Origin: Phoronis australis
Taxonomy: Eukaryota > Animalia > Phoronida
Direction of reading: 5' to 3'
Assembly: GCA_002633005.1 (NCBI GenBank)
Contig: NMRA01000288.1
Location: 74,300-138,299, forward strand
Length of the DNA stretch: 64,000 bases
The notes beneath the pieces are model-generated. The model did not search any database. It saw nothing but the letters and a program-made list of their open reading frames with translations, and was not told the origin of the DNA. The translations under genes and the position numbers were made by a program. Positions 3,235 to 61,867 of the stretch are shown piece after piece (the first letter of the stretch is position 1; each line of letters opens with the position of its first letter).

Positions 3235-3487
3235 AATACCAAAGACGCTGGCTACCAGAGAAGAGCCGTGTCATGAGATTGTCTTGCCGTTGTCAAATGT
3301 TCAATTTAGCCGACAACAATGAAAGGGCAGAAACTGGGACAATCAGGACAAAACTTCTTCATAAGAACAGCGAGAAATTGTATGGTAGTCTGCGACTATC
3401 CTCACAGACACAGACCAATAGAATTACTCATACGTTGACTGGTATAACAAATGCTGGAAACCCGGAACAGGAGGATTTCGTTTTTCG
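3235..3487 (+). CDS. IL-1-like gene exon A (N-terminus, first half of PDZ-like domain)
   Basis: Acceptor tttttag|AA at 3235; in-frame ATGs at 3273 and 3297; donor CG|gtatgt (phase 2) joins exon B as CGT. Confidence 0.7.
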
Positions 3488-6400
3488 GTATGTTAATATG
3501 TAGAAAACGTAATATGACAAAGAAAAAACATAGGTGCGAACTAATTGCTGAATTGGGTGAGGGTGTTCAAACTTTCTATACACCCTCATATACATATCAT
3601 TATGTATTGTTCGGGAGCAGCCCATCATCAACACAAACTTGATTGGAGAACACAAATTAATGTACTTTTTGTTGGACAGCTTGGTGTACACTCTTTCATA
3701 CTCTCTGTACAATTTCCTGTCTTCCAGCACTGTGTAGATGAAAGCAAATTACAAATTAAGTCATTACAAACAAACAAGTTAATTAAAGTAATTGCCATAT
3801 TTCAAGAGTATATGTCTCGCACTTGGGCACTAAACTGAACGTGGTGAAAGCGAAAGAAACCAGTAAAATGCGGTAAAATCTCACCTTTGGACAAAAGTAA
3901 TTTAATGGCAAAATTGATCTTTTTTCATTATTATTTATAAAAGCTTCTAACATACAGTGACATAATAACTTTGGAGAGAGTGTGGTCTTTTAAACCAAAG
4001 AAGAAGAACATGCTTTCGAATGTCAACAATCAGAATCATTGTCTTAAGGTAGCTATATCAGACCTTTAAAATGTTATAGCATTTATGTGGTCCTGCTTAT
4101 CTTTTATTAAAAAATGAAATCATAATATTTCTCTTGTCGGCCATAGTGTGTCCTAAATTGGTGAGATTTTACCTGTTAACAGTGGCAGTAGTTTGGAGGG
4201 CATACTTTGTCTAGTAGAGAGTGTGGATGTTAGGAAGCCCACAAGCCTAATGAAATTGTGCCAGCTTATGGTATGAAATACAGGTTTTCACGACTGATCA
4301 ACAGAGGACTTCATAACGGAAATGGGTCATTTTCTATATATAGCTTTTTTGCACATCCTAGCTAGTGTCCATACTGTTTTTGATTCTGTTTTGTGGACTA
4401 CACCCCCCATTCAGTTTAACGTATTCTGCACTATATGGTGGCCATTTTATGACACCAATTAACATCTCTAGAAGCTTACCATTTGTGGTGCAGTCGTGGG
4501 TGCATTTCAGCACTAATTCGGTTTGCCCTTGATTGACTTCATGGTGGAGAAAACACACTAAACATCAAAATGGCCAATATTTAACCTTTAAATGTATTGG
4601 ATGTCACTTATGCACTCAGTATAAAATAGACAAGTAGATGGATCGTTGAATTTGGAGATGTTGTAATTAAATTTCGCAAGATCCTGTCCATGCAGCTATG
4701 AAATTAGGCGCCTCAACACTGCTCAGGTTTTCCACAGTTGCATGCAGCATTGTCCAGTGTGGAACCCATAGCTAGTTTCTTTCATTTTGAAGTTGTAAGA
4801 TTTTGGGCCCGAACATGCCGAGTACAACTTGAGCATGTCACGGTCATCTAAATGTTATTTTTGCCAACTGTTCTGCACGCCACCTGTTGGCCTCATAAAT
4901 ATGATTTTCCATTAAGGCCTCCATTCACCTTACAAAGGTTTTGCCAAAGATCTGTCTTTAAGGGTACGGTATTTCGGGCAAGTTGATTTCCAATGAGTAT
5001 CACTATAATCATCCTTTCATCTTGGTAATCAAATTGCCAGTGGGTTTCTGTATCCCTCCTCCATTTTAGTTAAACCCGTCACCAGAGTTGATTATTGACC
5101 ACTACTTGTGGCAGTTTATCTTGGGACACATGTTGGCTATATGAACATGCGTTTAATGGTTATTGAATAAAAATGGATCATCTTAAAACTGTCATTTTTG
5201 AATATTTTTAGTGATGATGATCTGCTAGAGTCCATTAATGATACCAACGTGTCTGTCTACTGCCATCAACTCGTTGCATCTATGCTTCAACATCAGAAGG
5301 AAGTATTTACATTAGTAAGTTGTGTGTTCATGTATTAAGAAATGGTCAGTTTATCGTAGCCGGGCCAATGACTGGAGGTGATGAAATATCGGAAATCGCC
5401 CTCTTTCCTGCTTGATGATGGGGACATTTTTGCTATTCAAGAAGGTGAATTCCCACAATCCACTGCGCAGACATTTTATTTCCTTCTTCCTGACTGGTTA
5501 GCCATATGAACAAATGTAGCACTTTAGCATCTAGATAGTTCTGACAATGTCAAGCTAATAATGTTAGCCAATCAGGTTGTGGGAGCAATGTGTAAACACA
5601 CCAAAATCTACCATTTTTCAATCAGTGGTTGTGAATTACGGAAAATGTTAAGAGGTTTTGCGGAGACTGAATGAAAAGTGCTGCTGATCAAAGCATATAG
5701 TAGACTCCATGATCAGAGGAATATAGTGTCGCCTAACTAGTATCAAGTGCAGCACTCGACGCTTAATTAGCTAAATGCCAAGTTGCATTCGGTGACAGGT
5801 CATTGGTGTAACATTAACCGAGATAGTGCCAGATATTTTTTCTGTCTTACGTGCATGCAAAGTTTCAATTTGCCGACAACATAACTATGTCAAGAAGGCA
5901 AATGTCTTCCTGGTTACATGTGTATGCACTTTCTAATAATTTAATTAATTTGTACTTTTGATGCATTTGATGAAATTTTCACTAAAAATGCCCTACAAGT
6001 GTCATTGTAAAGTTACTCACCAACTCAAGTTTACACCAAGAGCGTCGAGTGCAGGCGCAAAATAATTCACCCACAAAAAATGTTTCCCAGGAAAACACAC
6101 TTCTTTGTTCTGCGACTTCCACTGCATTGAAGAAGCTCACACATATTTTGTTTCAAGAATTTTTCTCTGTTCATGTCGAATACAATGAACTTTTTATCAT
6201 CAAAATGAAAATTTGAAAAAAAGAATTAAGAGTTCCATTTCAGGTGACCTGAGGTTGATGTCTGCACCCAAACAAAGCAAATGCTTGTCCAAGTACACAG
6301 AACCATCGAACAAAAGAAAGTAAAGAATCCTCCTTCAATTGCATTCATGCTATGTCTTGCGCGCTCATGCCGACTTGTTTCAATTTTGAACGTGCGCATT

Positions 6401-9400
6401 ATGAATATCAATGGATGCTATTAAAAATGATGCAAGTTTGATTTGATAGTATTCAGGTTACTGTACAGTAATTTATTAATATTTCAGACTGTCATACGAA
6501 ATGGAAGAAGACTGAAGCTGGAAGTTAAGCTCGGTAAGTAATGTTTTACACCCTTGTAGTACTAACAGTAATACACCAACTATAATGCAAAAATAAGTAA
6601 AATATATTTTCTGCATAGTCAGAATGTGCCAAATAAACCGAAACTGAATAATATACAGTTGACAGGTGTGCGAAATTAACTGAGAGACCAAGCATCGCCA
6701 ACTGCCTTTGTGTGTGAATGTAATGGAACCGACTTCGGGTTTTCAACATGATCCTGTTTAATAACAGTAATTAAGTTTACCATGCTGTTCTAACGTAAGA
6801 ATTCTTTATCCCATTAATAGTGAAACACTCTTTGGACTGTAATTTGATCATTTAAAGTGACACAAAATGCACCTGGTGACCTGTTTGACCTCATGTTTTA
6901 AAAAGTGTGAGACATCCCATATAAATTGACTCTCATGTTGACACGGAATGTAGCGCTACCACCACTGAGAATGTATACCATAAGAACTGCATGTCTTATG
7001 GATTATCCAAGTGAGGAATGTGTGGTGATTTTTTCGGGACAATTTTAAGGTCATCAAACCAGGTGATAGATAGTGGATGTCGTTACTTGTTATCAGAACA
7101 TAGTGTCATGTACAGGACTTGGAATTTTCCTCTTTTAAGAAGATTTTCTATTTTTTGGTTTCGATTTCCTCTTATTTGATTTCCACTTCCTCTTTTTTGT
7201 CATTATTTTGACTTTTTCATGCAAAAGCATTTATTTCAGTTAAATTTTACAACAAAAAATAATTCTATCACACTGCAAGCTTATTTATTTGTGGAACGAT
7301 ACATCACCTGGAAAATTTTCATCTTTTTTGTCATTGATCATTCCAAGCAATGCATGTAACCTCAGTATGGAAACAAACCCATGTCACATGGATGAATGTT
7401 TCCGTCGTATTGTGAACAGCTTTACACTGGAAACACAGTTTGCTAATTTCCCAACGATTACTCAAATCATGCATTTGCAAGGTGGGTACAATCCGAGACC
7501 ATTTATCAAATCAGCTTGGCTGGAAAACAATTGGGAAAGAAGCAGTAGATACATCACAATTCGCAATGTAGAAAGTTGTGTTTTTAGTCACGTTCATGGA
7601 CAGAAGTGTAAGTGAGATATGACTAAATGTGTTCTAGGAACTTACTAAATCCAACTGGATGGATGGTTAAGTGAGACGATGTGTGCTATCTGTTGCACAA
7701 AATGCCAAAATCTTCCGTTGCCATGGACCTCTGTAACCAGTCTCAACTGAGAAGGGTATAAGAATGTTCTCATGCTTTCTAAATCGCATTTTATTTTTTT
7801 GTGACATAGGTGCTACTTTATGGCTGTGTGGTTTTTGCTGCTTGTAGTAATTTCTGAAGAGATCGAATTTCATGCTTAGTTTAAGGACAGAGATGTTGTG
7901 TTTTATAGATAAAAGAAACGCATTGTACATCATAGTGCATGCCGGGGGTTGTGATGAAGTCGACGGGGGCTGTGGTGGAATAAACAGTATCAATGACATA
8001 GAAGATGTGCAATATGATAACCCAGAGTTCACCCATGTCATGAAGTGGTCTGAAGACAGAGTCCAAATGGCACCTAAGGCAGACACAATCGGGTCTAGTG
8101 GTGTGTGGTTTTGTATAGTTTCACTCAGCTTGTTTTCCAATTGAGTTTCATGTGTTCAGCTTGTATCAGGCAAACATTTTTATGCACCCAAATATTTACG
8201 TATTTGTGGGTGCATATTGCTGTCTGTGTCATGGCGTCCGGGCATCTGTTGTCCGGCGTTTGTAGTTGTATCTCCTAAACTCCTTGCACGATCTTGATGA
8301 AATTTGGTAGATGTGTTCCTATGAAAGTGAAGATGGATGACGACAAATGTCTGACCTCTCCGACTACCGGTGAACCCCCTTTAAGTGGCAATTTCAGTTT
8401 TGTATGATTACCTCTGTACCTTCAAAGGTCCTGAAAAAGATTTTTATAAAATTTTGAATATAGGCATCGATCTATTGGTGAAATGATGCTATCATCCTAA
8501 TTTTGGATGGAATCGAGGTATTTTGCACCACCTGGTGGGCATTTTTGGTGTTTTCAAATCTTGTGTTTAGCGTTCACCCTCGATCAACCAAATCATTTTA
8601 GGGATGGTTTTGAAAATTGGCGAATATGTTTTCAGTGTGAAGCGGACTTTTGATGATGGTGACTGAATACTTGTTTTGCACCCATAGCTGTATCTCCAAA
8701 ACCCACTGCAGGATCTTTATTAAAATTCAATAAGTGCATTTATATGAAGATCACAGACAACTTTCAGACGGATGGAACGGACGCTGTGCCCACAATTGTC
8801 AATTTCATTTTGTTCTGTTTTCCTTTTGTTTCTTGAAGTTCCTTGACAGATTTTTATGAAATATGGCATGTTCCCATTTTTAGATGGATTGTACGTTTTT
8901 GCGCCATCTAGTAGCCATTTTTATGATAAAAATAACCCTAAAAGCACACCATTTGCGATACATTCGTGGGCGCATTTCAACGCTTTGTGTTGTTCTTGTT
9001 ATATAATTAGGCAAGAGAATTTAATATGAAGTTGACAATTGACAACAACGGCATTTGGATGGAACCGACTATCGCTGTGCCACCCCTAGTGGCATTTTTT
9101 CCGTTGTCCTCTGTATCTTTTAAACTCAGTAGATATTAGTGGAATTTAATACATAAGTTTCCACTAAGGAGATGACAACGCCTTCTCATTATTGGGTGGA
9201 TTTGACGTACTCTGTGCCACTCTGTAGCCATTTTAACATTTCTTGAGTACGTTTGTGACATCACTCTCTTGATCCACTAAACTGCTTGATGGATCACTAC
9301 TAAAATTTGGAGATGTGTTCCTAATGAGAAGACCGAGGCTGACGTTGATTTTTTGACTTGTTTACCTACTCTGCCCCTGCAAGTGGCAATTTTATTTTTT

Positions 9401-12400
9401 GCGTCCACAGCTGTATCTTCTTCCTTTTTATGATCTTCCTAAAATTTAGCAGATGTCACTTGTGCTCCTATGGAGATGGCAACTGATAACCTCGAGTTTC
9501 AGACCAATCCAACTACAGCTATGCTCCCTAAATGAAATTTTATTTTTTACCTGATACTTGATGCTTTTTCATAAAATTCAGTAGGGCAAACAAATTTCTC
9601 TCATGAAGATGATAACATCTTTCCTTTTTGTTATATATCCAAGGTATTCTGCCCAGTTAGTGGTCATTTTAATTATTTTTTGGTCTGTTTTTTGTCATCT
9701 GCCTCTGTTTCTGCCAAACTAATCGGAGGATCATTATGAAAATTGGCAGAGATGTTCCTACTCACAAGAGCATGACTGACGTGAATATTCTAGCTGTTCC
9801 AAGTACTGTGGTGCCCCCTAGTGACATTTTACGCATCAAAGGCTGTATCTCCTAAGCCCAGTGCAAAGTGTTTTTGAGCAGTTGTATTCGTATTAACTTG
9901 ACATTTGATGAATGGATTCGACTAGTGCTGTGGTTCCTAATGGCAGATTTTTACGTTTGCCTTTGTATCTTTTGAGCTCTTTGTGGATTTTCATGAAATT
10001 TGGCAAATAATTTTTATGATACTATTAAATTCCTAGGAGCACACCATTTGCAGTGCATTCAATTTCATGGATGTATTTCAACACTCTGGGTTGCTCTTGT
10101 TTGCAGCTAGTATTTTATTGTGGCCATGATGATGTAGAATTTCATGGGGACTGAATACCCAGTTTCAACGTGCGCTTCTTGAATACATGAAGTATTTTTA
10201 CCGTGGTATCCATTTGTGAGGACTGAAATACTGAATAATATTTAATCTGCTTTTCCCTAACTAGGGCTAGTTGCATGGTTTGGCATATAAAGCGCTGTCG
10301 AGGTCATGTTAACCTTAAGACATCCCACTTGACACAAGTGCTAAATGCTTTAATATAATTTCCCCCATTGATAAAAAATCGAGTTGAAGACTTCTTGTTT
10401 TTTGTGGTTAATACTGGGGCCGGAATGAAGCACATAGGTGAATAGTTATGGCTTAATAAACCACTTCATTCCTATCTTACTTTGAAGTTGACCATTTTGA
10501 CTTGCCAAAGCAGCGTTTAGTAGCTTTAAAGATGATGATTGATTTAAATTGTTGTTCACTTTTGTTTCTTACAGAATTATTCGTTGTTGATCAGTATATG
10601 GGTCTGGATACTACAGATGGCTCAGATGTATTTATTTGTACTATTCGTGTGCATCACAAGTCTAAACGATCACGTAAGGATCGGTTTCTGATGTGTACCG
10701 ACAACAAAGAGGTGGTATTGACAGTGAGTAGTACTTGTAACATTTGACGTGAACTCAAAAACGTGTTAAAAATTATATCTAGACAATATCCAGAGAATGA
10801 TTGAGGGAGCTTGAGGCATCTTTAAACACAGCCATAAGACAGGGACGCACTGCCACCATTGAATTTTCATTATGTATTTGACTATGGTTACCATAGCGCT
10901 CCCTGTTGACCATTTCAGTTGTTGTCAAGATATTTCTTGTTGATCAACTTTTGGTAAAAAAACGGCAAATTTTGGTGAAAATTGACACAAGTTCATGATG
11001 GCGATGCACTGTCACTACAGTAAAATCTTTTGAACTTAGGGCACAATATGGTGGACGAGTGAAATTTTATTTTCTCATTTTTCATAAAAAAATATTGAGC
11101 ATAACACTGAAATCTTGGTTTATTTGACTCTGACTGTGTTATCCGGAACTCCTCGGGTATTTTGCAAACCTCAAATATCCCCTCGGAGGTGCAATTCTAT
11201 TTGCACATGTGCAAACTTTAGGAAATGTCTGAGGATGTTATTGCGTGAGATTTTAGTGCTCCCCAGAACTCGCAGCAGTAACAAGTTTGAATTCCACCTT
11301 CCCAAGTTTAACTTGTGTTGATTTTGGAAACTTACTACAAAGAGTCTGAAATGTTGGGAGGTCATTCACCAATATATCGGTTTACAAGCAAATTGAAACA
11401 TTTGACTTAAAAAGATGTTCATCGATTTTGTAATTCAAGTCTGAATTTATTGTGGAGAACGCTGGACTTTTAGACCTAATGGTGATGCCATGATTTTTGA
11501 CTTACCGTTTCTTGAACAAATGGTTTCACAGTTATCATTGAAGTGCACACACAAAGCATCTCTGATGGGAAAAAGAGTCCACAAAAATACCCGAGGTGTT
11601 CTGAATGCTGTTGTGGCTGACATCAATGGATGAGTGGCCGATTGGGTGACCTAAAAACCAACGTGCAACTTTAACGTCTGTCCAGTTACGTTATAGATAA
11701 GTGTTTCTCCATACTGTAGCAGCGGTTTATTATTGAGTCATGGTGCACTGACTGGTCACTTGGTTTACTATTATTTCAGAAAGCTAAATTCCACGAAGAT
11801 CATGTCAATCTGAAAAAGCAAAAATCCATGCTATTTCAACTGAGAAGTTGGAATTACGTAACCTTCTTTGAGTCGTTGTCTTATTTGGGTAAGTGATTGT
11901 GAAGGAAAACCTCGCAATTATTTTCTCAAATATGACTATCTTATTTAGTCTCAAAGTGTACGGAACGGTTCCGCAGTTTTTTAACATCCACTTAGAGCCA
12001 TAAAAAATGGTATGAAACAAATCTATACCTTACCCTAAACATGTTTACAATTTTATATTTTTATTTCCTGAATTAGCATTTTCTTAATTAGAAGTTCAAT
12101 TTTTGCCATGCAGAATATTCCGCAGATCATAGTTTTGCAGAATACTACGCAGATTTTGTGGAATATTACGCACTTGCAGAATACTGTGCAAGTTTTGTGG
12201 AATACTGTGACTTGCAAAATTTTATGCATATTTTGTGGAATAATAAACAAAATAATAATTTATTTTTAAAAATCAGTGTGACAGTTCCAGAAGGCTTCCA
12301 AAAAAATAAAAGTTTAGCACAGGTCTAAAATTTTTAATTTTCTCCCAGCCCAATAAACATGAATTCCATTCCATTCTCAATAGCACTTGAGAGTATAATG

Positions 12401-13209
12401 TGTCCACTCTCAATAATTAATCAATCTGACGGTTGCAGAATGGTTTCATACAAGGAACGGTTCCGCGAACAGAATAGTTTTTTGGAGCACTCAATTGAAC
12501 TTCTAATTAAGAAAATGCTAATTGAGGAAATAAAAATGTAACATTGTTAGGGTAAGGTATAGATTTGTTTCATACCATTTTTTATGGCCCTAAGTGGATA
12601 TTAAGAAAGTGCAGAACCGTTCCGCACACTTTGAGACTAAATGAGATAGTCTCATTTGAGAAAAAATGGCCTTAGTGAAATGTTATTCAGTGTTTGGTAT
12701 TTCCTGCCTCAAGTCATGAAAATCACATACAATCCTCAAAATATGTTATGTATTTCAAACACAACAGCTAAAGTAACTGGCAATGCATTTGATAGGTAGT
12801 GTTCTTGACATCATTACAGACATGACGAACTCTTCTGTAGGGCTGCAGACCAGTACTCTGAGAATTTCGGTATCTGTAATGAGTCATACGGCCCCTAGCT
12901 AGTATCATGTAACGTGCTTTTGCCACTTAAATCAACTCTTTAAAGTTGTAGCCAGGTAATTTTCACATGATGAAGTTGCTTATAATTAATCGGAAGTGTC
13001 AGTTTCCTTGAATTTGTGCATTGGCCCGCTCTAATATTGGTATTATATCAAATTAATGTTTTATGGCAGGTTACTTTCTTTCTCACGAGGATGATCAAGT
13101 GTGCTTGAAATATGTTGGCACTCACAGGTCATGTGAGGAACTAGAGGAGATTCCAGACATACAGTTTGGTGTGCAATGGATAGACACCTTGAGGACACAG
13201 CTGTCCTAA
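3273..13209 (+). CDS. Spliced gene: PDZ-like domain + IL-1/IL-18-like beta-trefoil cytokine precursor (~317 aa; 5' start uncertain)
   Basis: Exons 3273(acceptor 3235)-3487, 5212-5314, 6488-6533, 7909-8100, 10575-10723, 11780-11888, 13070-13209 sum to 954 nt, in frame, all GT-AG. Product: MRLSCRCQMFNLADNNERAETGTIRTKLLHKNSEKLYGSLRLSSQTQTNRITHTLTGITNAGNPEQEDFVFRDDDLLESINDTNVSVYCHQLVASMLQHQKEVFTLTVIRNGRRLKLEVKLDKRNALYIIVHAGGCDEVDGGCGGINSINDIEDVQYDNPEFTHVMKWSEDRVQMAPKADTIGSSELFVVDQYMGLDTTDGSDVFICTIRVHHKSKRSRKDRFLMCTDNKEVVLTKAKFHEDHVNLKKQKSMLFQLRSWNYVTFFESLSYLGYFLSHEDDQVCLKYVGTHRSCEELEEIPDIQFGVQWIDTLRTQLS*. FESLSYLGYFLS matches the IL-1 family signature (human IL-18 FESSSYEGYFLA). Confidence 0.8.
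5212..5314 (+). CDS. IL-1-like gene exon B (PDZ core: DDLLESINDTNV...HQLVASML)
   Basis: tttttag|T GAT...TTA|gtaagt; the peptide fits the PDZ GD-x-I-x-x-I-N-G...H-x-x-V-x-x-L pattern. Confidence 0.8.
6488..6533 (+). CDS. IL-1-like gene exon C (TVIRNGRRLKLEVKL, PDZ last strand)
   Basis: atttcag|ACT...CTC G|gtaagt; 46 nt, phase 0-1, fits both neighbours. Confidence 0.8.
7909..8100 (+). CDS. IL-1-like gene exon D (linker with DEVD/G, start of trefoil)
   Basis: ttttatag|AT...AGT G|gtgtgt; phase 1-1; overlaps ORF 7872-8144. Confidence 0.75.
8177..10101 (+). mobile_element. Helentron-associated (HINE/DINE-like) non-autonomous element with degenerate ~140-160 bp tandem array
   Basis: 5' tttttATGCACCCA...TGGGTGCATat hairpin, short GTCC-like tract, ~11 degenerate units (aaatttgg..atgtgttcctat..ga.gatga...ccctagtggc..ttt..tgtatct), and a 3' end motif (catttcaac.ct.tg.gttg.tcttgtt) present twice, at ~8975-9000 and ~10075-10101. 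Confidence 0.55.
10575..10723 (+). CDS. IL-1-like gene exon E (ELFVVDQY...ICTIRV...FLMCTDNKEVVLT)
   Basis: tttcttacag|AA...ACA|gtgagt; phase 1-0, like the central trefoil exon of IL1B/IL18. Confidence 0.85.
11780..11888 (+). CDS. IL-1-like gene exon F (KSMLFQLRSWNYVTFFESLSYL)
   Basis: ttatttcag|AAA...TTG G|gtaagt; carries the FES motif; absent from the ORF track. Confidence 0.85.
11920..12667. mobile_element. MITE/foldback element with ~180-bp terminal inverted repeats
   Basis: 11920-12101 is an imperfect reverse complement of 12493-12667 (e.g. aaatggtatgaaacaaatctataccttaccctaa / ttagggtaaggtatagatttgtttcataccattt); short internal tandem repeats at 12109-12243. Confidence 0.8.
13070..13209 (+). 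CDS. IL-1-like gene exon G, terminal (GYFLSHEDDQVCL...DIQFGVQWIDTLRTQLS*)
   Basis: ttttatggcag|GT TAC TTT CTT...TCC TAA; completes the YLG/YFLS signature across the intron. Confidence 0.85.
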
Positions 13210-19823: not shown

Positions 19824-22800
19824 ATGGCATTAGGAATTATCTGCCTATTCATTCTGATGAGAATTCACCAATCTCATGAACGTAAGTATCAGAATCAATA
19901 ATTTCTCGTAATTTATTTCTATTTTCCTGAAAACCGGCCGCACATTGCAGACATGAAAGAGCACGACTGTTTAATATATATTTGTGGCATTAAAGCAAAC
20001 GTTTATATACATGTAGGTGGGCAAAACATTGCACTTTTTGCCATTTTTTATTTTTCATTAGTGATAATCATTAACTATGCGTATTAGCGATGTAGGCAAC
20101 AGGTAGCAAGCAATGCTCGGAAATTTCTACATGTAGATGTCACTCCACATGTCAGGGCTGACGTATTACTTACAATACATGTATAATACTTGCATTTGCA
20201 TTCGTACTTACACAGTATAAATATGTACAATTATTACAAAAACGTAAATTAATCCCAATGGCCAATAACTTGTACTTAACAGTAAACGCTTAATATACTG
20301 TAGCGTCAAACACTAATCGTAGTCGGAACCACTCAATTTGAGAATTTGTTGCACCGGGGCTTGTGATAGACAGAGTAAATGAAAAAAGCAATATTCTGAT
20401 GCATATCTCCGAATTTCACGGCTAACTCAGAAAAGGTTTGAAGAGTGAGAACCCTTGGTTTTGTACTAGATATAGCCAAATATTCTTGTGAGTTATCATA
20501 AAATACCACTAAGTGTATTTTCTCATATTTCTTTGTAAAAATAATGCAAATAACACCGGAACTTAAAGAAAAACTTAAAACTTTGAATGCTATTTATAGC
20601 CGTGCATTATGAATTGAAAACAATGGGAGTTTGTGGAGTTTGAAAATTATTTTAAGCATAAACCGAAATTTTAAAGCGCTATTCGCCCGTTTGCACAGCC
20701 ATAAACTCTGAGGGGGGGGGGGNACAATGAATTTTTGGCCGTAAAACAGCCTCCCGTTCAGTAACGCTAGGACCTCGCTAAAAAGCAAGACTTCGCGAGA
20801 TTACGTGAGATATTGCCGTGCATTTTACTTGAGAGCACGTGAATTTGACTAGGTTTTAGCTAGGTCCTAGCGTAGGTCCTAGCGTCTACTGAACGCACGC
20901 CAGATAATGTCCCTTAACTTAAAACCTTTTTGAGGTGGAGATATAGTAACTTTGTTTTTGTAAAATCTCGTGTCTATTTACCCCCAGCGTCTAGCTTCTT
21001 TACATTGGCATGAGGCTTCAGCCATCTCCTGATGCTATTAAAGATTCTTGACTGTAAAATAATAGAGGCTAAAAATTATGTTATTTAGTTTTGTGCCTTT
21101 GAAAATGACATTAAAAGTTCCATATTTGCAGTTAATATTGCAACTAAGGCACATCACCTAGTATTCTCGTGGAAAACTTTCAGGATTTCGATATTTCATC
21201 CGCATTGCTCTTGCTCAGAAGTTTATTCTTTTGAAGTAGTTTTAAATTACAATTTTAATTTTCGTTATTTAATGACGTTGCCTACATGTAGGTCACAGTT
21301 AGCGCGGGAACAATACAAAAAGTGTCATTATCAAACTCGCTGCGAATGAGTGGACCGGGTACGCTGAACGGGCCTCAAAATCGTGGGATCCTCGTTACTG
21401 CCACGCAAGAGATCATTGTTTACGGTTCAAACAAAGAAAAGTACAGTTGTGATGCATTTCTGGCCCTTCCTACGGACGTGCTAGGCAAGGATTATTTCAT
21501 ACCGTCGTGGCCAAAGGAGGCTTCGTACCAGGAGCCTTCGCAGTTAGGTGAGAGATCAAGTGCTAAACTGAAATGGTAAAAAGAACCCATGCATTGTCGT
21601 CTGTAATAATGTGTTCTAGGTCATGCTTCGGGGTGGAACTTTTTAGATGGTTTTAATAGCTGGGTCTCTAATTTTACGCGATATACCGAGTGGATCCGTG
21701 GAGTTCATCGAATGTTTGATTAGTTACGCCAGAGTTGGTTTACTAGATTTATGTATTGATGGTGAGTGTGGGGCTGATAATGGTGACCCTAATGGTGTAC
21801 CCCAGAGGTCGATAACGGGCCATTGTTATTTTGTGTGTAGGTAAATGAGTAGAATTAGTTTGTATGCGGATAACACAGCCCTCTTCTTTGCTGCCAAGTC
21901 AATAGATGAAGTCAGTGTCAGTTAGCAGAAGAAATGAAGTGCGTTATGACATTTAATGTTAAAAAAGCAAAGTTATGGCTATTGGTAGCAGACAGAGACT
22001 GGCTGTGTTGTCTCCAAGCAACATTGCCATTACTGTCAACGTCACCCAGCTGGCAAACACTGAGAAATATAAATATCTGGGTGTTATGATTGATAAAAAT
22101 TTATCGTGGGACGAGCATGTTGATTATGTGTGTAAAAATGTTTCTCAGCAGATTTGGCTTTTGTGCCGAGTCAAGAGCTATGTTGATTAATCTTCCCCTA
22201 GACTCTGTACAAGAGTCTAATTGTACCACACTTTGATTACTGGGATTTTGTCTGGGGTAATTGTGCGTCATGATTCAATGAAAGACTTCAAAATTAGAAA
22301 ACAGAGCTGGGAGGCCTCAACTATAGTAGCCTTTATAGTGATTTTCCAATTACTGATCTTCTCGATACTGATCTTCTCGCTGGTGCAGCCTGGTTAACAG
22401 GCGTGCCTTTAATCCCAATCTTATGTGTACAAAGCAATTATCTCCGACTGGGCCCACTTGAAAATCAGTGTATTCACTGAAGTAGTCACCCAGTCATTTT
22501 GAAGACGTTTGAATAAATAAACAGTTGAATAAATAACTAAATAAATAGGTGAGTGCGGAGGTAGTGGTGGAAGTTGGGACGAAAATGAAGAAATGATGAT
22601 GTGCTCATTGTGATGATCGATGGTGAGGGCTTAAGACTGTGGTCATGGTAATTTTAATGGCGATGCCTATGGTAGTGATGGTGATCAACATTGTCACCAT
22701 GCAGCGTCATCGTCATCATCGTTTTCACTATTATGATGATCATGATGATGACGACGACGATGATGAAGATGATGATGATCGCCATCATCATCATCATCAT

Positions 22801-25800
22801 TAACATCATGGCCACTATGATCATTCCGCTGATTGTAAATTTAAGGTGTGGTTGGAGTGCAAAACGGAACAGCTGTGACTTTTACGTTTCCATCGCACCT
22901 CAGCGAGTTTAAAGTGGCTACCGGTTCAAATAACGGAGGTAGTTACTCTTACACTAAGTACAACGCTGGGTCAACTTTCAGTATAACGCTTAACAGAGGA
23001 CAAACGTACCAGGTGAGTCAACTGGGTTATTTACAGAAAGTTTTAGGAGGAAACGCAAAAAGATGAACACGTGATCAGAGGACAGACAAGTTTCTGAATT
23101 TTAAGTGACATTCATGGAAAATGACTTCTTTGTAATTCCTTTAAGTACAGTGGGTTACCCCGTTTAAAAGAAACTTTCGCTAATGTCAGGGCTTAAAACG
23201 ACTCACTAGCCTACTGGGTGCCATTTTTGAAATCTCAATTATAGTAGTTGAAATTTCAGCATGCTAAAATCTAGTGTCATTACAGGCCATTACAGTTTCC
23301 CTATGCGAATTAAGATGCATGCGCATTTATTCTAAACACTTAAGTAAAGCCAAAGAGCATGTGGAAATTGCGTGACTCGAGTAATATGCCTGAGTGTGCA
23401 TTTACCTACTTCACAATTAAAGCTCTCGAATGAACATGGGAACGCACAACCAGTCGGCAGTAAACTGCTGTAATTCGAGATTTAATGCAAGATTTCTGTT
23501 ATTTTTTGCAGCTCCAATCCGAGCAAGACCTGACTTCCACGCGTATCCAATCCGACAAACCAGTCGCCGTCATGTCAGGCAGTTTGCGAACTTCCATTGC
23601 CGTAACTGGAAGCTCAGATCACATCGAAGAAATGATTCCACCGACGTCTTCCTGGGGCAAATATTTTATAACATCACCTTTCGCTGAAAGAACTGCCGGT
23701 GACATATTTCGAATTTTAGGTATGACATTGTGGCAGTGCTTTAAGGTCATGCAGTACATTGCGTATTTAAACACATATCTAGATTTTAACTGAGTAAAAG
23801 CATTACTTTCTGAAAGTAGAAAGCCTGGCGAGTTTGATTTGTGACGGTTTACCAATCTGTCCTTAATTGAGTCACGAGATATTTAGCGACAAAAGCTACA
23901 GTGATTATAAAACAATGGTACCAGTAACATAAACAGTTTTCGGTGCAAATATTCAAGATGACACCTGAAAAATACTATTAGAATTTTCTAAAATATCATA
24001 TGCTTTTCCTTTATGCAACTTTAGATTTTTTTATGAAAATCATAAAATCATAGTTTTTAGTATCCCTTCATGCAAAGGTGGAATTCTTTAGAAACAAGTC
24101 CCAACTGCATAAAACATACCCTGCAAGTTTCATACGGCCCCGATACGTCATTTCTGAGAACTGATGTTCCTAGGTTAAACGAGCTTGGACATTTGTCTGG
24201 GGACCTACATAACCTTAAGTACGTTGATACGCTGGTGTTTCAGAGAGATTGTTTGCAAGGAGGCAGTACAGACGGTTTGTAAACCTAGGGGTGCCTTCAA
24301 ATCGATTAGAGGTTATTATTATCCTGTATGGTTTACGATATGGATTAAAATCAGTAAAACATTTTTACAGCAAAGATTTTCAAGTTTAATTAATTTCACA
24401 TGCTAAAAGAAAGCTGTCGGGGTGTAAGTGAGTTTCATTCTAAAAATGCTTTGATCTGTTTTGTGCAATAGTGCGTAATATAGAAAATGTTATTGGCGAA
24501 AATGAAGCAATCGAGAAAGTCGAGTGTCGTGACCACGTATCACCGTAACACTCAAATTTCACACAACAAAATGGCCGCCCAGCAATACCAATGCAAAGTC
24601 ACGTGGTAACCAATATGTCTATCTCCACGTGACAGATGATAGGCACTCCTGAAGGGGCGAGGGAAGTGCCACTTTACAGATGACCAGAATAGCTTTGTGA
24701 CAATGTAGACAACAGTCTCAAGAATTAAACTAAGCCAACCTGGACCTAAAGCGTCCATGTTCGACGATGGGGAAATGAGATCTCTAAAACATAAAACCAC
24801 GTGGTTTCAAAAAAAGAAACCATATGATCAAGTCACTGGCACCTGGATTGATGACCCAGTGGCGGATTTAGAGGGGGGGCATGCTCCCCCCCTAAAGCTC
24901 TTCAACATTCCATTTGGCAGATCGGGGTGCGAATGTCTGACGGGCAAAACCCTGGCCATGGCCCCCCATAAATAAAAATCTTGAATCTGCCCCTGTGACC
25001 GTACCCTGACAAGAATCCTTAGGCTTATAGTGACAAGGCACTTGCACCTAAAAGTAGTACTATGACGTGATGCTCCTTTCTCGTGATGAGAAACTTGCAC
25101 TGTGCAAGATGGTGCCGCGAAAACTTTACCACGCAGATGTATGCTTACTATAAAGAACCGTGTATATTTTCGGATCATATGTGAAAATAAATGCTTATCA
25201 TAGTATCGTGTTGAATATTTTAACAAAATGTTATCAAATGACAACCATACACAAAACGAGCAGTTATTGACAGCGACACCTGCTGACAATTTCGACGACA
25301 AAGAAGTTTTAGGTTGAAAGCTTAGAAAATTTCAAAGCGAATTTCGTTGTTCGCTCATTTCATTCTACAGTTGAAAACGTGGATTCGGGGCCGGGGTCGT
25401 GAAGTTATTTTGAGTATTTTCACTCTACTTTGTGCAAAGTCAGGATACATTTCCGGTGCTCGAGTAAGTTATGGTTCGTCTATCACTGCAGAATAGAGGT
25501 TACAAAATTATCAGTGGTTTCCAGCGCATACAAACTCATGGTGGTTGTACATGAGTGAAGCGTGTGTTCTGTCTGATTTGCAGTTTCCGTCGACAACACT
25601 GAGGTTCAACTAACGTCAACGTTGGACAATACCACTACGAAGGAGACGCTGAGCGTGGGAAGGTTTAAAGAACTAGATGTATCCTCCAATGAATTCTACT
25701 ACATATCAGCTTCAGAGCAAATAATGGTTGTACAATATTCCAAAACAAGTAAGAGTACAGGAGTTTTAAAACAGGATAAAAAACAATTTATTTCAATTAA

Positions 25801-26652
25801 TGCTGAACGAACCTATCTTACTGAGTTCTATTACCGACTTGTTGAGTTTAAAACTATATTTAGTTAGGACGGTAGTAAACAGTTAGTTAATTTTTTTATT
25901 ACAGGTGATGCAGACGGCAAAGAGAGTGATCCCTTCATGACTCTCAATGTACCCATAGAACAGTTCTCTAAAGACTACACTTTCGCAACACCGGAGGCCG
26001 TTCAAGAGCCGTATCAAAACTACGTCGCCATCACATGCAAAACTACCGAATGTAACCGTCTCTATTTAGACGGTAGTTCCATATCACAAGCAACGTTTTC
26101 GAAAACGTGGACGTCGATTCATGGGCCCCAAACACCCATGTCGGTTTGCATAGTTAAAATTAGTCACGGAACCCATACCTTAAGCCACCCCGACCCAACA
26201 GTAGCCTTTGGTATTCAAATTTATGGCCAGGTTAAGTTCGAATCATACGGCTTCCCAGGGGGTACGTTGATAGCTCCACTGTACGGTGCCTGCGTTCCGA
26301 CTAGCGTTGTGGTGAATGACGGATTTGACAACGACTGTGACGGTAGAATAGACGAGGAACTCGCAGACGGTCTGGACAACGATGGCGACGGAAATGTAGA
26401 TGAAGACACGGCGCAGCAGACAAATCCGCTATTTACGTCACCAACTACGACTTCAACAACTACAACAACAACAGTAGCACCAACAACATCAACTTCAACA
26501 ACAACAGAGTCTCCACTAACGACAACTACTACAGAAGCTCCAATGACAACAATAACAACAGGAGCTACAACAACAACATCCAAAACAACGGAGGCTCCAG
26601 TGACAACTACATCTACAAAGGGTGAAACAATGAGAACAACCACAGAGGCTCC

Positions 26653-26687
<35 letters not shown>

Positions 26688-28192
26688 CCGCAGAAGCTAA
26701 AATAACAACTGAAGCTCCAACAATAAGGATAATTTCAGAAGCTCCAACATTACCACTGCCAACAACAACAACAAACACTCTGAAAAGCGCAACTACAGAC
26801 CAGACCAATCCTGATGGGGTAAAGAATCAGAATAGCGGGGCAGATGGTGAACTGCCAGTGGACATTATTTTAGCAACTGTGATTCCAGGTGTTGTCGTGT
26901 TATTGACCACCACTATCTGCTGCTGCTGCTTGCTTGCAGCAATTAGAAGAAGAAGGAAAGAAAAGAAGAAGAAGAAACCACCTGAAGACGACGGGGAAGA
27001 AGAAGAACTTGATAAAAAGAACAATAAAACACAGAATGTGACTGTGAAGACAATCCCGAGCAAAGCCAAGAGCACCAAATCGCCTGTGGTCCCGATTAAT
27101 TTGGCTGCCAGTGGAGACGCTGACAAAGACGACTGGATATATTCTCGATCCGCTACGTCAAGTCCACGTACTGAAGTTTCGGAGTTAACTCCTCCCGGAT
27201 CGCCACTGTCATTGAATAACGTTGACACCTCCCTTCCGATCACAGAGTCAGACACCCATTCTACTCAACACCTGGAAATTGGTCGTTCTTCTGGAACAAA
27301 GGATTTCAGTAACCACAATAGGTTGATTTCTAACAGGATTTATGAAAGAAACTCACCAAGAAATGATCAAAACAGCCAATACAGAAACTATGGTTCGCCA
27401 CAACGACATGCCAATTATGATGATGAACGACGTGCGAGTCCCGCAATCAAAAATCACAGGCGTTCTAGTCCGCCACCACGTTCGCGATCTCCGGTGTATC
27501 CCTACCGTAAAGCACCTAGTATTTCCATGGATCCGCGCGGTAACAATCGTGATCTTGCGTACAAATCGAGGCAACCTGACGCTAGGCATCCCTCTCCACG
27601 TGGCATCAGATATGATACGCATAGAGAAAGGTCAACTCCCATCCCCCGGTCGCCACGCGGTGATGTTGACAGCCGTGGTTTTACGTACGACTCTAGGCAT
27701 ACGTCACTTCGAGAAAGGCAAACCTCTATCCGAAGATCGCCAAAAGCCTCAATGGATCCACGCGCTGATTTTGACCACCGTGACTTTGCCTTTACTACTA
27801 CACACCCGTCGCCAAGCTCTCATAACAGTGACACACGCAAAGAGAAAATGACGTATGCTGATGGTGGAAACTATTCTAACCACAGTGCGGCGCAATCCAC
27901 TGCCAGGTCAAAAGGTTACTCCACTTCGTCTCACGCTTCCTTCTACAATGTAAAACACTTAACGTATAAAACCACCGATCCACAAGCGAATAGCCAAAAG
28001 TTTAGCCTATCATATAAGACATCTGGTGGAACACTTAGTCATAAACCAGACTGGTCAGTGAATGGAATAAGTAATAACCAAAAGGACATGGACGAGTGGT
28101 GGAATGCCACAGGGGCTCGCGCGCAAGTTGCGACTGCACGCCGTGAACCGCTCAAAAAACCTGCACGGTCAGACTACTTGAATGGATTTTAA
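19824..28192 (+). CDS. FCGBP-N (IgGFc-binding-like) domain membrane mucin, paralog 1 (exon 2 not present in assembly)
   Basis: Exons 19824-19881 (signal peptide MALGIICLFILMRIHQSHE), 21292-21547, 22846-23012, 23512-23719, 25584-25748, 25905-28192. Motifs SCDAFLALPTDVLGKDY, LNRGQTYQ, SDKPVAVMSG, DHIEEMIPPTSSWGK, DPFMTLNVPIEQF and ESYGFPGG are typical of the FCGBP N-terminal domain; then a Thr-rich stalk, TM at ~26864-26944 and a 415-aa tail. Confidence 0.85.
21610..22547 (+). mobile_element. Decayed non-LTR retrotransposon (CR1/L2-like) RT 3' fragment
   Basis: GVPQRSITG, LYADNTALF, KYKYLGVMIDKNLSWDEHVDYVCK with stops/frameshifts; ends in an (AATA)n-like tail at 22511-22547; lies in the intron after exon 3 of paralog 1. 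Confidence 0.8.
22590..22825. repeat. (GAT)n/(CAT)n-rich low-complexity tract before exon 4 of paralog 1
   Basis: Direct observation; ORF 22691-22912 (poly-M/I) is a by-product. Confidence 0.8.
23810..24090 (+). repeat. Dispersed repeat also at ~28340-28580 and ~40945-41245
   Basis: Shared blocks such as agaaagcctg..a.tttgatttgtgac, aaacaatggta.ca.taacataa and tatgcaacttta. Confidence 0.6.
24857..24995. mobile_element. Small non-autonomous DNA transposon (MITE), 5-bp TSD
   Basis: Imperfect TIRs CAGTGGCGGATTTA / TGAATCTGCCCCTG flanked by direct repeat TGACC. Confidence 0.7.
25905..28192 (+). CDS. Paralog 1 terminal exon (end of FCGBP-N, DxDxDG repeats, mucin stalk, TM, Arg/Ser-rich tail)
   Basis: ORF 25937-28192 extended to the acceptor ttattacag|GT at 25905. 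Confidence 0.9.
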
Positions 28193-32375: not shown

Positions 32376-35300
32376 ATGTGCCTGCGCTTTTTACTTCTGT
32401 GCGTATTCATTCTGAGGGAAATTCCATACTCACATGAGCGTAAGTACACGTTTGGGGGTCTTTTTCTATTCGAACTTCAAGACACTAGCCCATTAGAAAT
32501 CTCTAACATCAAACTCGTGACTGGGCCCATAAGAGTTCAAAAGCTTAAGAAAATAGTCTCCAAAACCCGGTAACTGACAAACTCGTTAAACTGGCAAAGC
32601 CGGTGGTGTTTTTTTGCCGGGAAGTGTTTCCACAACAAATCTCAAATATATAATTTAACAATGCAGATTAATGAACGTAATCTGAAATTCAAATGTTTTT
32701 ACTATCGTGTTATAAATTGTTTTTATTGTTTATTATAAATTGTTATTTATTTAAAGGAAATATAGTATACCAAAAACGTTTTTCTTTTACTATACATTAA
32801 TGAAGCACAAAAATAGTTCCAGGTGGCCAGTGAAATGGGCCCAAATGCGCAGCCTGCGCGTCCGCCTACGACTGTTTATTAACGCTTGTATTCAGCACTA
32901 AAAAGAAAATTATGTAATATTTTGTGATTACTCACCACGACTTCAAGAATTCACAACAGTTTAATTAGTTACTACCCATGTAAATAACGCATTGTTGGCA
33001 GAATTGCCTCAGTTTAGGCGACTATAACGGGAAGACTAATTCGATGACCGCCACAGTGTCTGTGTTTTGCAGATTTGTAGCAGACAAAAACCATAATAAC
33101 ACAAAATATCAAAATTCAAGTATAATGCAACGATAACTCAAAACTGCATTTTAAAAAGTTTACTGTCAACTTTTTCAAACGTAGAAGCTGCTATGTAATA
33201 CATGTGCGAAACACCCGGCATCAATGGACAGTTATTCTTTCAACGTTAGACTTGTAATTTGCAAAATGACCTTTACAGTTCCAGATAACAAAGGGACAGA
33301 GTTCATGATAGGTTTTGGAGAAAATTCGGCAATGAGTAAAGACCTCGAGCTGTTCGTAACTACATCGTACACAGGCGAGTCTGTCAATGTAACCGTCAGT
33401 GTACCGCTTAACGGCGCTATTCCCGTGCAAAAGGTAAGAATGATTTTTGTCCATTAAATCCACATAATGACAATTTTTAATACCGGGGATTTCAGAAAAT
33501 GATCCCTGGCAATTTGAGTCCAAAAAACACCCCCAGGCCATGCGCGCACCCGGGGGAGGGCTCGGAGGGCTCGAACGAGTGGGTAAAAATATCCGCCTCA
33601 GAGAAACAAAGTGGACGAGAAAACGAGACAAAAGTTCACTAAAAAGGCGCAGACGCACACTTCACAGACTTCAAGGTGGTACCCCTTATTTTGTCATTTT
33701 TTTTATTTAGTGCTCACGCTTTTTTGTTAGCAAAAGGTCCACTTTGTTCGAGATTCGAGCCCCCCCCATATTAAAGGCTGGATGCGCGCACGCAGGGTGC
33801 TCTTACGGAAAAAAGTCGTGGTCTCCTTCGTGATTTTGAATTGCTTACCACATGCGTAGCGAGCAGCTGACAAAGCGTTCTTTGGAAATTTGAAAGTAAA
33901 AGAAAATGCTTTGATATGAACAGACATAAAATCTTTACGAGAGAGCAAACCCTAAAAACCTGCTGAGTAGGTTGAATTCTGTTTCAGTGACAGAGAACAA
34001 CTTTCAATATTGCAATTTAGTTTGCTTATCGCGTTCCAAGCCTCTTTAAATTAGGTGTAAATGGCAGTACTGTACATTCAACTCACAGAGGATGGCGTCG
34101 TGGTGATTTGTTTCTACACTGATTTTTACTTCGGTCGCCTTCATTGTATCATGGGCTTTTTGGATCTTGTTTCCAAAAAAGATATCACGGCGACATTATG
34201 TTGATGGAGTCTCTTTCGGATATTCTCTGTACTCACAAACTCTGGCATACTAAAGGAATGTTTCATTTTAAGATCAAGTCAACAGGTCCCTCTTTCAAAG
34301 TGCCTGGGTTGCCCTGTATGTAATGACTCACCGTCCCAAGATTACTCTCTATTTATTATTTCCAAGGGTTCATTGGTTCCTGACATTCAGATTAAAGTGT
34401 TTCTACGAAAATTGACAAAAGTATGTGATTAATAGCCAATTAATTATAATTATAATTATAAGCCTTCACCAGTATAATTATAAACTAATCTTATAATAAC
34501 TGCAGAAATAACAAAGGTCATTAGGTAACTTTGATAACCCGAAATAACCCTTTAAGAAGTCTGACAAAAACTATATCATTTGTCATACAAGAAAAATAAA
34601 GTAAAATCAACAACTATATGACAATTGACATTGGTGTAATGAATATGATACAAAAAATCAATGATATATTTTAAGAAGTTTTTATGTTCAATCGATGAGG
34701 TTCTATTGTGTTGAGCTTGTCTACCCAATTTTGTTCTCTTTTGAGTCTTTGAGGGGTACTGGGGTGTTGGAGATTTTCTATTATTTGTACAGAAAGATCT
34801 TGAATATTATGGTTTTTGGAATTGCAATGATTACCTACAGCATCAGAAATGTTTTTATGTACTATGTTAAATCTCGGTTTCGTAATCTTAGGTTTTCCAA
34901 TCATTAATTCTTATAAGTTACTCAGATTTGGAAAACTAATTAAACAAAGAATTAAGTCAATAAAATTGGCTGAAAACTAATTAAACAATACAGCTTACTG
35001 AAAAAAAATGCAGCAATAGTACATAGATTGACACACCCCGTCAAATCACTACGCGGAAATTACATTTTAAAGGCTATCAACAATGCGTTAAATTTCTCGT
35101 AGTAACATTTTCTGCAGCAGTTGGTAAATCGAGGACATCCAGTCGACAAATATCAGTTGAAATGTAAGCAGTATTAGTTTTTTGCTGATTTTCTGCAACC
35201 ATTATTGAGTTACCATTTTAGAATCCCTGAACATGTTCTACAAATCCGCTACAAGATGCTGCACGAACTACAATTGAAGTTGTGATGTGTTTGTTTTTAA

Positions 35301-38300
35301 CCGCAAGCGTAAACATTTCATTGTGACCCTCTAACCCGAATGTCGCTTAACCACACGATGCGTCGCATGCCCAACGGTGATATTGAGAGGCGTTTTTGTA
35401 ATCACTGAAAAGAGTTGTTTACGTTTCACAAGTTCTTTAATAACCCGATTTTTTCGGGTTTTGATATTTGGGTGTATGGATCGATCCGTGACAAATAAAA
35501 TGAGGTAGAAAACGTAAAATAGGCACAAAATGAGTAAATTGGACGCATTGATGACCTTCAGAATATTATTAATTAAATATGATGTACGATGTTCCTAGGT
35601 GACAGTTACGACGGGAGTGATACAAAAAATATCCTTGCCGAACTCTCTACGAATGACTGGGCCGGGAACATACAACGGGGTTCAGAATGTTGGCATCCTA
35701 ATCAACTCCACGCGGGAGATAATAGTTTACGGCTCGAACAAGGAGATGTACAGCTGCGATGCGTTCTTGGCTCTTCCTACGGGCGTGCTGGGCAATGATT
35801 ATTACGTGCCTTCCTGGCCTATGACACAAACTGCGTACCCGGAAGCTTCACAACTGGGTGAGAAATTAATGGATGAGTTTATATAATCGCATATACATTC
35901 AGAGATATCACTAAATTAATCATGTGATAGTTTGGTAGTTAGCATTTATGCCCATAAGAGAACACTAGCGTGAAAGCGTATGGCATAATCACTTTACCAA
36001 AACTCGCCGAGAGAGGGTGATTACGCGAGATCTGGCGATAATTCTTTCGCCGTCTTTGACACAGCTTAATTCCTATAATTAGCCACGATTTCACAACCAG
36101 AATGTCATTATATTGATCATTGTTCATCAATTTGTGTAAACAAAAATTGTTTTGTCCTAATTAACCACTTTATTTTTGAACTCGTTCGAACTACCGAAGT
36201 TATTCCCATTGGCGTCCACCTTTGTCGCAATAGGTACATGTGCAACTCTAGAAGCACGCAAGGTCGGTCCAGGCAATATTCCCGGTTCAGGGATTGACCT
36301 GAGTCAGCATTTACAACATTTGTTTGCAACACTTACATTGATTCAGGCCTATTGCCTAAGGCAAGAATCGCAAGCCACGATGTTTACAAAAGCGCCATCC
36401 ACTGACAAAAATGACACGCTAGTGTTGGCTTACGTAGTAAATGGGTAGTTAGACTATATACTTGCTTTTAAAGAGGTATTTAACCTTAGTCCAGTCTAAT
36501 ATACATTTCACTTAATTAACTCTAAATTGTGAGCTGCTGAGTACAATATGATCAACGAACGCCGCGTTCAACGAAGGTTCCACACCATCGCTGTTATTTT
36601 TAGATTCTTGACATTACTGTGTTCAAAGATTGATCTCGGTATTTCTCATTTTAGTGATCCTTGACGTCGAATAGACAAGCACCGATGCGTGAGCACTCTA
36701 GAATAGAGATTTTTGGAGTATCCAACATGGCCGCTACGAGCAAGGTGGCTGCTTGACATTCCAATGCTTTACCTGCTTCAATGGCTCGATTTCCACCACT
36801 GCACTTGAGGCGTTTTCTTTTGTCTGTAAAAAGGCCGATGTCAGTGATTTTGCACTTTTCATCTGATGTAGTTTAGTAGAGGTGATGCACAGTGTAGCGA
36901 CACATGCCTGAAAGCCGGTTTCAGAAATCAGCAGTCGTCAGCCTGTGAGAAGGTTCATCTTTGCAATAGTGGGGCATTGGCGCTGCCGCCTGTTCTTCTT
37001 CATAAACCCAAATGCTGCAGCACGGCCATCAGCAGACTCAGTTACAATACCTGACGCGAGACTGCTTCCTCATTCTTTCGTCAAGTGCGTGAAACAATAT
37101 TTCTTAACTTGGGGTGCGTTTCTTTGACCTGGGTATCTAGCGAAACAGCAAGATCACGCAAGACCAGTCACGCACGTGAAAAACTGCATTCTTTCACAGT
37201 GCTACGAAAGGTAGCGCGGTTGAACGTTGTTTAAAGTGGCTTCTCATTCGTTAAAGTAATGAAACTGGCGTCATAACGTTCAGTCATTCCCATTGGTTGA
37301 AGTAAAGGAAACCCCTTCAGTTTAAAGTTACCGAGTATAGCGACCACTTTGACTTGAACAGAGAGTGGCATTTCATTAAAACGAGCAGTGATCGAAGTAA
37401 AAAAATCAAGGAAACCCCGATCCAGGGGCTTAAGCCCAAACAAGTACAGTGCATAAAGACGTGTGCAAGTGGTGGCGATGTGACAGTATACTTCCGACCA
37501 ACGCATGCGCATTCATTGATGCCCACACACGGAATTTCGTGTGTCGTTCGTCATGTTTCCACAAGGCAACTTTTCAATATAGGTAGAGCTGTGTCAGAGG
37601 GTAGTGAAAAACTATTGTTTCACGAGTATGCTTGGTAGCTTTAAGCTAATTCACTTTTCTCCGTTCCATGAACTAAGATTTCTACCCGCACGATCTGCTG
37701 AAGTGTCTTGGGTCTACGAATTGTCGCTTTGTTATGGCACGAACCAACTTCATAATCAAAATTTTTCAGTTACACTTTTTGCACACATTTCTGTAGGAAT
37801 CGGTGTAATTCACGTCTGCATTGACCAGGCACTCGACGTATAATAAGGCCGTCACACCAAATTCGTTCTCAGAAGACCGGGAGGCCGTTCTTAGATTTTG
37901 ACGCAATGACATGAGACTGGTGGAAACGGGCAACTTCAGACAAAAACCGTGCTTAAAACCCAGCAATATTCAAGAGGCTGCTACGCTACAGGGTCTACAA
38001 TGCGAATCACTTGCAATCTTGTGCTTTGCTTTTTACATGGTGATATCACGCAAGGAACTGGCTTACAAGTCCAGTTACACCAAACACGTTCAAGGGCGTC
38101 CAAGCCTGTCTTACCATTTTAACGAAACGGGTGGAGCTGAACAGTGGAAACGGGCAATTTCACTTGATCACAACAATGCCTCAAATACGATGCAGTCCAC
38201 GGTGTTCTTGCTCCGGTTATGCAAAATTTAGACGGCTCTCACTCGTTTGTTTCCGTTTTCGCAATCGTACTGATAACTACTTTGGTGTGACAAGGCCTTA

Positions 38301-39143: not shown

Positions 39144-39190
<47 letters not shown>

Positions 39191-44228: not shown

Positions 44229-44280
<52 letters not shown>

Positions 44281-61833: not shown

Positions 61834-61867
<34 letters not shown>

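Follow-up and report, generated by a model that had tools for sequence, protein, structure and literature searches.

A DEVD-G motif ahead of the predicted trefoil in a likely IL-1anc cytokine gene of Phoronis australis: a candidate site for executioner caspases

The locus, its transcript and its neighbours

The window analysed here, a 64-kb stretch of Phoronis australis DNA, is animal DNA with long introns, and it carries on its forward strand a gene that we model in seven exons, all of whose introns begin with GT and end with AG. Read from the ATG at 3273, the seven-exon model encodes a protein of 317 amino acids. The exons are as follows:

3273..3487, + strand: coding portion of exon 1, whose acceptor is at 3235; encodes the N-terminus together with the first half of a PDZ-like region; RNA depth and a junction to 5212
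5212..5314, + strand: exon 2; encodes the remaining half of that region, the PDZ being recognised by eye; junction reads on both sides
6488..6533, + strand: exon 3; encodes the final strands predicted for the PDZ; spliced reads join it to both neighbours
7909..8100, + strand: exon 4; encodes a linker strand, the Cys/Gly loop that holds DEVD-G, and predicted trefoil strands 1-3, assigned through comparison by eye with Table S2 of PMC13736523
10575..10723, + strand: exon 5; predicted trefoil strands 4-7; joined to exon 4 in an X8 contig
11780..11888, + strand: exon 6; encodes predicted strands 8-9, FES (aa 265) included; from the model, its junctions not being among the RNA joints listed
13070..13209, + strand: exon 7; encodes predicted strands 10-12 and holds the stop codon; X8 contig over 13088-13261

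In stranded RNA reads from the same species, four of the six junctions of the model are among the joints listed, those on both flanks of exon 4 included, and the expression of the gene is low in the RNA sets concerned (X5 to X8). In particular, the junction between exons 1 and 2 (3487>5212) is crossed by 3, 1 and 4 reads in X5, X6 and X7, respectively, that between exons 2 and 3 (5314>6488) by 1, 0 and 6 reads in the same sets, and that between exons 3 and 4 (6533>7909) by 7 reads in X7 and by none in X5 or X6; the junction between exons 4 and 5 (8100>10575) is carried by one X8 contig. The latter two joints, 6533>7909 and 8100>10575, fix the reading frame of the DEVD-G motif that is the subject of this study, and splicing at 7909 and 8100 rules out a single 90-aa open reading frame at 7872-8144 as the gene. 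The junctions between exons 5 and 6 and between exons 6 and 7, which set the length of the 177-aa C-terminal piece discussed below, are not among the RNA joints listed. At 13208, the X8 contig carries a variant that retains the stop codon. Since the frame of exon 1 stays open above the ATG at 3273, back to the acceptor at 3235, the protein may start further upstream, and such a longer N-terminus would leave the 177-aa piece unaltered. A candidate for a coding exon further upstream is a short basic open reading frame at about 1053-1191, which has a weak donor and to which none of the listed RNA joints leads. Finally, a tblastn search of the model against the window returned its own seven exons and nothing else.

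The recognisable neighbours are IgGFc-binding-like genes downstream, and only 3 kb of the window lie upstream of the gene. Namely, three spliced genes lie in tandem at about 21290-28190, 33185-46100 and 57550-64000, and each encodes an N-terminal domain of IgGFc-binding type (PF17517 in relatives) along with a DxDxDG repeat, which is acidic, and a long mucin-like stalk rich in Thr; in the first two, a predicted membrane segment and then a basic run are present as well. The best named animal matches of such a neighbour come from Lingula (47%), Owenia (45%), Watersipora (45%) and bivalves, with bacterial and unnamed matches intermixed, which points to the animal being a likely spiralian. As for repeats, intronic interspersed elements at 2740-2830, 7110-7350 and 8300-10010 draw numerous RNA reads that originate at other genomic places; within intron 6, a long inverted repeat can be made out by eye, with its arms at 11920-12030 and 12540-12670, which may be the termini of a non-autonomous DNA transposon; and a six-frame translation, read by eye, contains a degraded reverse-transcriptase-like (LINE) fragment at 41944-42528.

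The family of the encoded protein

The recently described IL-1anc family joins a PDZ domain to an IL-1 trefoil, its members being recognised by the PDZ (PF13180), a 12-strand beta-trefoil, [F/L]ES in strand 9 and no signal peptide, and it is induced on immune challenge and linked, in some clades, to GCC2, ESD, EIF2A, TRAF3 or IL-1R genes (Fontenla-Iglesias et al. 2026, PMC13736523). Judging from its motifs and intron phases, the Phoronis gene likely encodes an IL-1anc cytokine. Namely, its predicted trefoil is spread over four exons, with intron phases 1, 0 and 1, where the phase 1 intron comes before predicted strand 4 and the phase 0 intron after strand 7. The first two of these phases (1, 0) we take to match the positions in IL1B. 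In IL-1anc, the trefoil is encoded by 3-5 exons, and two central intron phases are conserved (PMC13736523). What is more, FES is found at aa 265, in keeping with [F/L]ES in strand 9, and the extended pattern running from FES to strand 10 occurred in 0 of 200,000 shuffles, a figure to be read with the understanding that this pattern was taken from the rows of PMC13736523 and fitted after the fact. Near the N-terminus of the model, the highest hydropathy over 12 residues is 0.27, in other words, a hydrophobic leader is absent, provided that the true start is not upstream. The protein resembles IL-1anc in having, by eye, an N-terminal PDZ-like region and a C-terminal trefoil-like region with FES, in its number of trefoil exons and, as far as the present model goes, in its lack of a leader. 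It differs in being short, unless an upstream exon exists, and in the place of its DxxD-G, after the PDZ-linker hairpin and ahead of strand 1, where by eye none of the listed members has one. A text search did not find it in the sequence table of PMC13736523 and, as a likely IL-1anc gene, it adds a member to the family.

The labels PDZ and trefoil derive from motifs and from comparison by eye, since our searches used single exons and the fold predicted for exon 4 was unusable. In particular, Pfam and NCBIfam scans with six of the seven exons taken singly (exon 3 being too short) gave no relevant family, and no PDZ match was obtained in Pfam, NCBIfam or the PDB with single-exon queries, the PDZ-like region itself spanning three exons. 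A strict PDZ pattern has no match in the protein; exons 1-3 fit, by eye, the looser PDZ pattern of the IL-1anc rows. PDB searches with exons 2, 5, 6 and 7 yielded two matches, both judged to be chance, and Atlas searches returned nothing or unrelated small phage-like clusters. A HMMER search with exon 4 against 1.84 billion representatives gave two matches to long tandem-repeat proteins, which were likewise rejected as chance, and word-based protein searches for relatives accepted none of four candidates for exon 4 and not the one candidate for exon 7, so that these searches yielded no orthologue. An AlphaFold model of exon 4 alone had a pLDDT of 42.8 and was uninformative. Twelve trefoil strands could be assigned through comparison, by eye, with two published members, LanaIL-1.1 and PmaxIL-1.1.

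The DEVD-G motif and its position

The sites that matter for possible processing of the protein are the following:

7950..7973, + strand: Cys136 and Cys143, flanking the candidate scissile bond; from the sequence, and like the Cys pair around D-G in LanaIL-1.1, by eye
7953..7967, + strand: DEVD-G, candidate caspase site, with DEVD at aa 137-140 and G at aa 141; from translation, model and shuffles
7998..8015, + strand: predicted trefoil strand 1 (IEDVQY), aa 152-157; from by-eye alignment to LanaIL-1.1 and PmaxIL-1.1
10607..10621, + strand: second DxxD-G (DTTD-G, aa 197-201), in the predicted trefoil strand 4-5 loop

Bases 7953-7967 of the forward strand, within the exon at 7909-8100, translate to D-E-V-D-G, and the caspase-3/7 site DEVD|G that had originally been predicted here is borne out by the translation, the spliced model and the frame fixed by RNA. 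Given the seven-exon model, the same is true of the predicted C-terminal fragment, as a cut after DEVD leaves a piece of 177 aa and 20.6 kDa. As far as the motif goes, DEVD-G has both the DxxD and the small P1' residue of a caspase-3/7 substrate. A small residue at P1' is preferred by these caspases. DxxD is documented as their motif (PMC12052993).

How surprising is such a motif? Among 200,000 shuffles of the protein, DEVD occurred in 1,902, DEVD[GSA] in 280, DEVDG in 104, and DEVD[GSA] inside the 19-aa linker in 18, figures that overstate the surprise, since the motif was chosen after being seen. Looser motifs are common by chance: DxxD-G occurred in 19,257 of the same shuffles (about 10%) and DxxD[GSA] in 50,560. 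In other words, only in its exact form is the motif unusual. What is more, DEVD is unique among the 127,996 six-frame codons of the window. Four variants are listed in exon 4, from X7 reads and one X8 contig, of which those at 7943 and 8030 are silent and those at 7987 and 8044 missense, and none falls within 7953-7967. In X5 and X6, there are no exon-4 reads at 96% likeness, and the few that appear at 90% each have at least five further differences, amounting to six or more from the window per read, which suggests that divergent exon-4 alleles are present in these two sets; the invariance of the motif covers X7 and X8.

The loop that holds DEVD-G is Gly-rich, has a low strand propensity and lies by eye outside the predicted strands, about 12 residues ahead of predicted trefoil strand 1 as placed against the sequences of PMC13736523. 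The original prediction had put the site between the PDZ and trefoil regions and had asked whether LYIIVH or IEDVQY forms strand 1. Comparison by eye supports a PDZ-like region on one side and an IL-1-like region on the other, and it points to IEDVQY as strand 1, so that DEVD would fall outside the trefoil. LYIIVH, for its part, was rejected as strand 1, as by eye it corresponds to the second strand of the post-PDZ linker hairpin in the IL-1anc rows. The alignment to LanaIL-1.1 (Lingula anatina, XP_013400692.1), by eye the most similar of the listed sequences across strands 1-4 and the FES region, holds residue class by residue class over predicted strands 1, 2 and 4 and the FES region, and the trefoil boundary given for PmaxIL-1.1, aa 126, leads to the same register (PMC13736523). 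In an alternative register, with the trefoil starting near aa 162, DEVD is still outside. Consequently, a cut at Asp140 would strip the whole PDZ-hairpin part.

LanaIL-1.1 also has, at the equivalent spot before strand 1, a D-G bracketed by cysteines, but with Cys instead of Asp at P4; what is more, it is 507 aa long, and the DEVD of its own lies N-terminally, with Phe as the next residue. Jawed-vertebrate IL-1anc rows show a Cys-rich loop in a roughly equivalent region. Given these two observations, the cysteines may predate DEVD. A bond between Cys136 and Cys143 would be expected to tether both pieces to each other after a cut. Conceivably, the pair might also lend the site redox control, as originally suggested.

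Candidate proteases and possible effects of a cut

Caspase processing of IL-1anc is already in print. Namely, SpurIL-1.3, a sea urchin member without a PDZ, was cut at DEPD184-G in 293T cells co-expressing human caspase-1 or the CARD caspase SpCaspX, and the cut was lost with catalytic caspase mutants or with D184A; its efficiency was low, and the authors left a role of endogenous caspases possible (PMC13736523). This site, the sole mapped IL-1anc cut in that paper, is a DxxD-G. It shares the G-C-D-E-x-D-G context with the Phoronis site, and the cut leaves a whole trefoil. It differs in lying much further upstream (product aa 185-424), in having Pro at P2 and in having been tested with caspase-1 and CaspX only. 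The lamprey proteins, SpurIL-1.4 and SpurIL-1.5 were uncut, and SpurIL-1.1 and 1.2 share DEPD-G with SpurIL-1.3, a cut being reported for the last only (PMC13736523); the motif is therefore insufficient. Likewise, since DEPD-G was cut with caspase-1 or a CARD caspase co-expressed, DxxD is no proof of caspase-3 specificity. The original suggestion that maturation is coupled to apoptotic caspases gains from the cleavage of a family member at DEPD-G, but its choice of caspase-3/7 over a CARD caspase is not established, the published cut having used caspase-1 and CaspX. As to that choice, we did not find the executioner-caspase reading in print: the main text of PMC13736523 has no mention of caspase-3 (in both versions), CASP3 or executioner, its supplementary PDF has none of DxxD, and caspase-3 maturation of an invertebrate IL-1 was not found in titles and abstract openings, a scope in which subscription journals mostly do not figure.

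Is DxxD-G a feature of the family at large? In Table S2 of PMC13736523, read by eye over the first 400 residues of each row, it is present in 25 of 71 invertebrate IL-1anc rows, 14 of the 25 being confirmed by text search. These comprise 3 of 5 cnidarian, 2 of 7 mollusc, 3 of 3 hemichordate and 17 of 41 echinoderm rows, and none of the 10 arthropod, 2 brachiopod or 3 cephalochordate rows. The proportion may be set against the roughly 10% of shuffles of the Phoronis protein that contain DxxD-G, bearing in mind that the rows are related paralogues, often acidic, and not independent. The position of the motif varies, mostly upstream of the PDZ and in some rows within it, which suggests a recurring processing signal and not one conserved site. 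This recurrence across the family is a new observation, one that the main text of the paper does not discuss.

Our tentative choice among the possible explanations, held with somewhat less than even confidence, is that a caspase-3/7-like protease cuts the linker DEVD-G of this likely IL-1anc, removing the PDZ region and freeing the 177-aa predicted IL-1 trefoil. Namely, going by the established specificity of caspases, an executioner caspase would cut after Asp140, the PDZ-hairpin part would be removed and the predicted trefoil released; more speculatively, the cut might activate the cytokine, and the freed piece might leave the cell via gasdermin pores or through cell lysis. An executioner-type caspase is favoured at Asp140 because DxxD is the caspase-3/7 motif, because caspase-1 itself activates caspase-3/7, in 293T cells as well (PMC13143181), and because of the precedent of a coral gasdermin, which is opened by caspase-3 at DxxD, molluscan gasdermins being without an evident caspase site (PMC9355259). 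Against this reading, none of the rows of Table S2 has, by eye, DxxD-G at the exactly equivalent position. The arrangement would recall that of human IL-1beta, where a cut just upstream of the trefoil strips the pro-region. There, however, the site (YVHD116) has a caspase-1 motif, a PDZ is absent and release is through GSDMD.

One alternative, to which we give a distinctly lower probability, is that the site is neutral or inaccessible: DEVD-G would be an optimal motif by chance in an acidic Gly-rich loop, or the Cys pair would have a structural function, and the protein would act uncut, like IL-1alpha, or via other proteases. The frequency of DxxD[GSA] in shuffles fits this, as does the fact that most IL-1anc proteins tested were uncut, two with DEPD-G among them, and that the authors allow for unprocessed active forms (PMC13736523); LanaIL-1.1, too, retains the cysteines and D-G and not the P4 Asp. 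On the other hand, it is improbable that chance would put the exact optimal motif at a place from which cleavage releases the complete trefoil (the 18 of 200,000 shuffles above), and no variants within it are listed in X7 or X8. It is unlikely, in our view, that the site is real and is cut physiologically by an inflammatory-type caspase with a CARD, as PMC13736523 proposes for SpurIL-1.3, whose cleavage with human caspase-1 or SpCaspX, abolished in the mutants, is the argument for it. However, caspase-1 cleavage was inefficient and may have been indirect, caspase-1 activates caspase-3/7, and DxxD is the executioner motif.

The remaining alternative concerns the second site, DTTD-G, which the original prediction had missed and which could be cut by the same enzyme as DEVD-G. 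By analogy, it could serve as an inactivating site like that of human IL-33, another IL-1 family cytokine, in which caspase-3/7 cuts a DxxD (DGVD178) and the cut inactivates (PMC9658128, PMC8707059); the counterpart of DGVD178 would be DTTD-G and not the linker DEVD-G. The strand 4-5 loop of IL-33 has an insert. Presumably, D178 of IL-33 lies in this loop. DTTD is a weaker caspase-3/7 motif than DEVD. That executioner caspases cut at both motifs, so that pieces of 60 and 117 aa result and the cytokine is silenced in apoptosis, as with IL-33, is the least probable of the readings considered here, as an extra DxxD-G is expected in about 10% of shuffles and LanaIL-1.1 has, by eye, no DxxD-G in its strand 4-5 loop.

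One may speculate further, although we regard the following as doubtful. Namely, ancestral IL-1 may have been matured by executioner caspases at DxxD-G, that is, by the class of enzyme and the motif that open cnidarian gasdermin, caspase-1 being a later vertebrate rewiring; the cut in SpurIL-1.3 may then have been made by endogenous caspase-3/7, and in Phoronis the linker DEVD-G would be an on-switch and the DxxD-G inside the trefoil an off-switch.

If the site is neutral, the finding amounts to one more IL-1anc, from an unlisted spiralian. The protease that matures IL-1anc, and the removal of the PDZ, were left open in PMC13736523, where only one member, without a PDZ, was cut. The Phoronis gene offers a likely PDZ-bearing member with an optimal executioner motif at the very place where cleavage would take off the PDZ region, and it makes this question directly testable.
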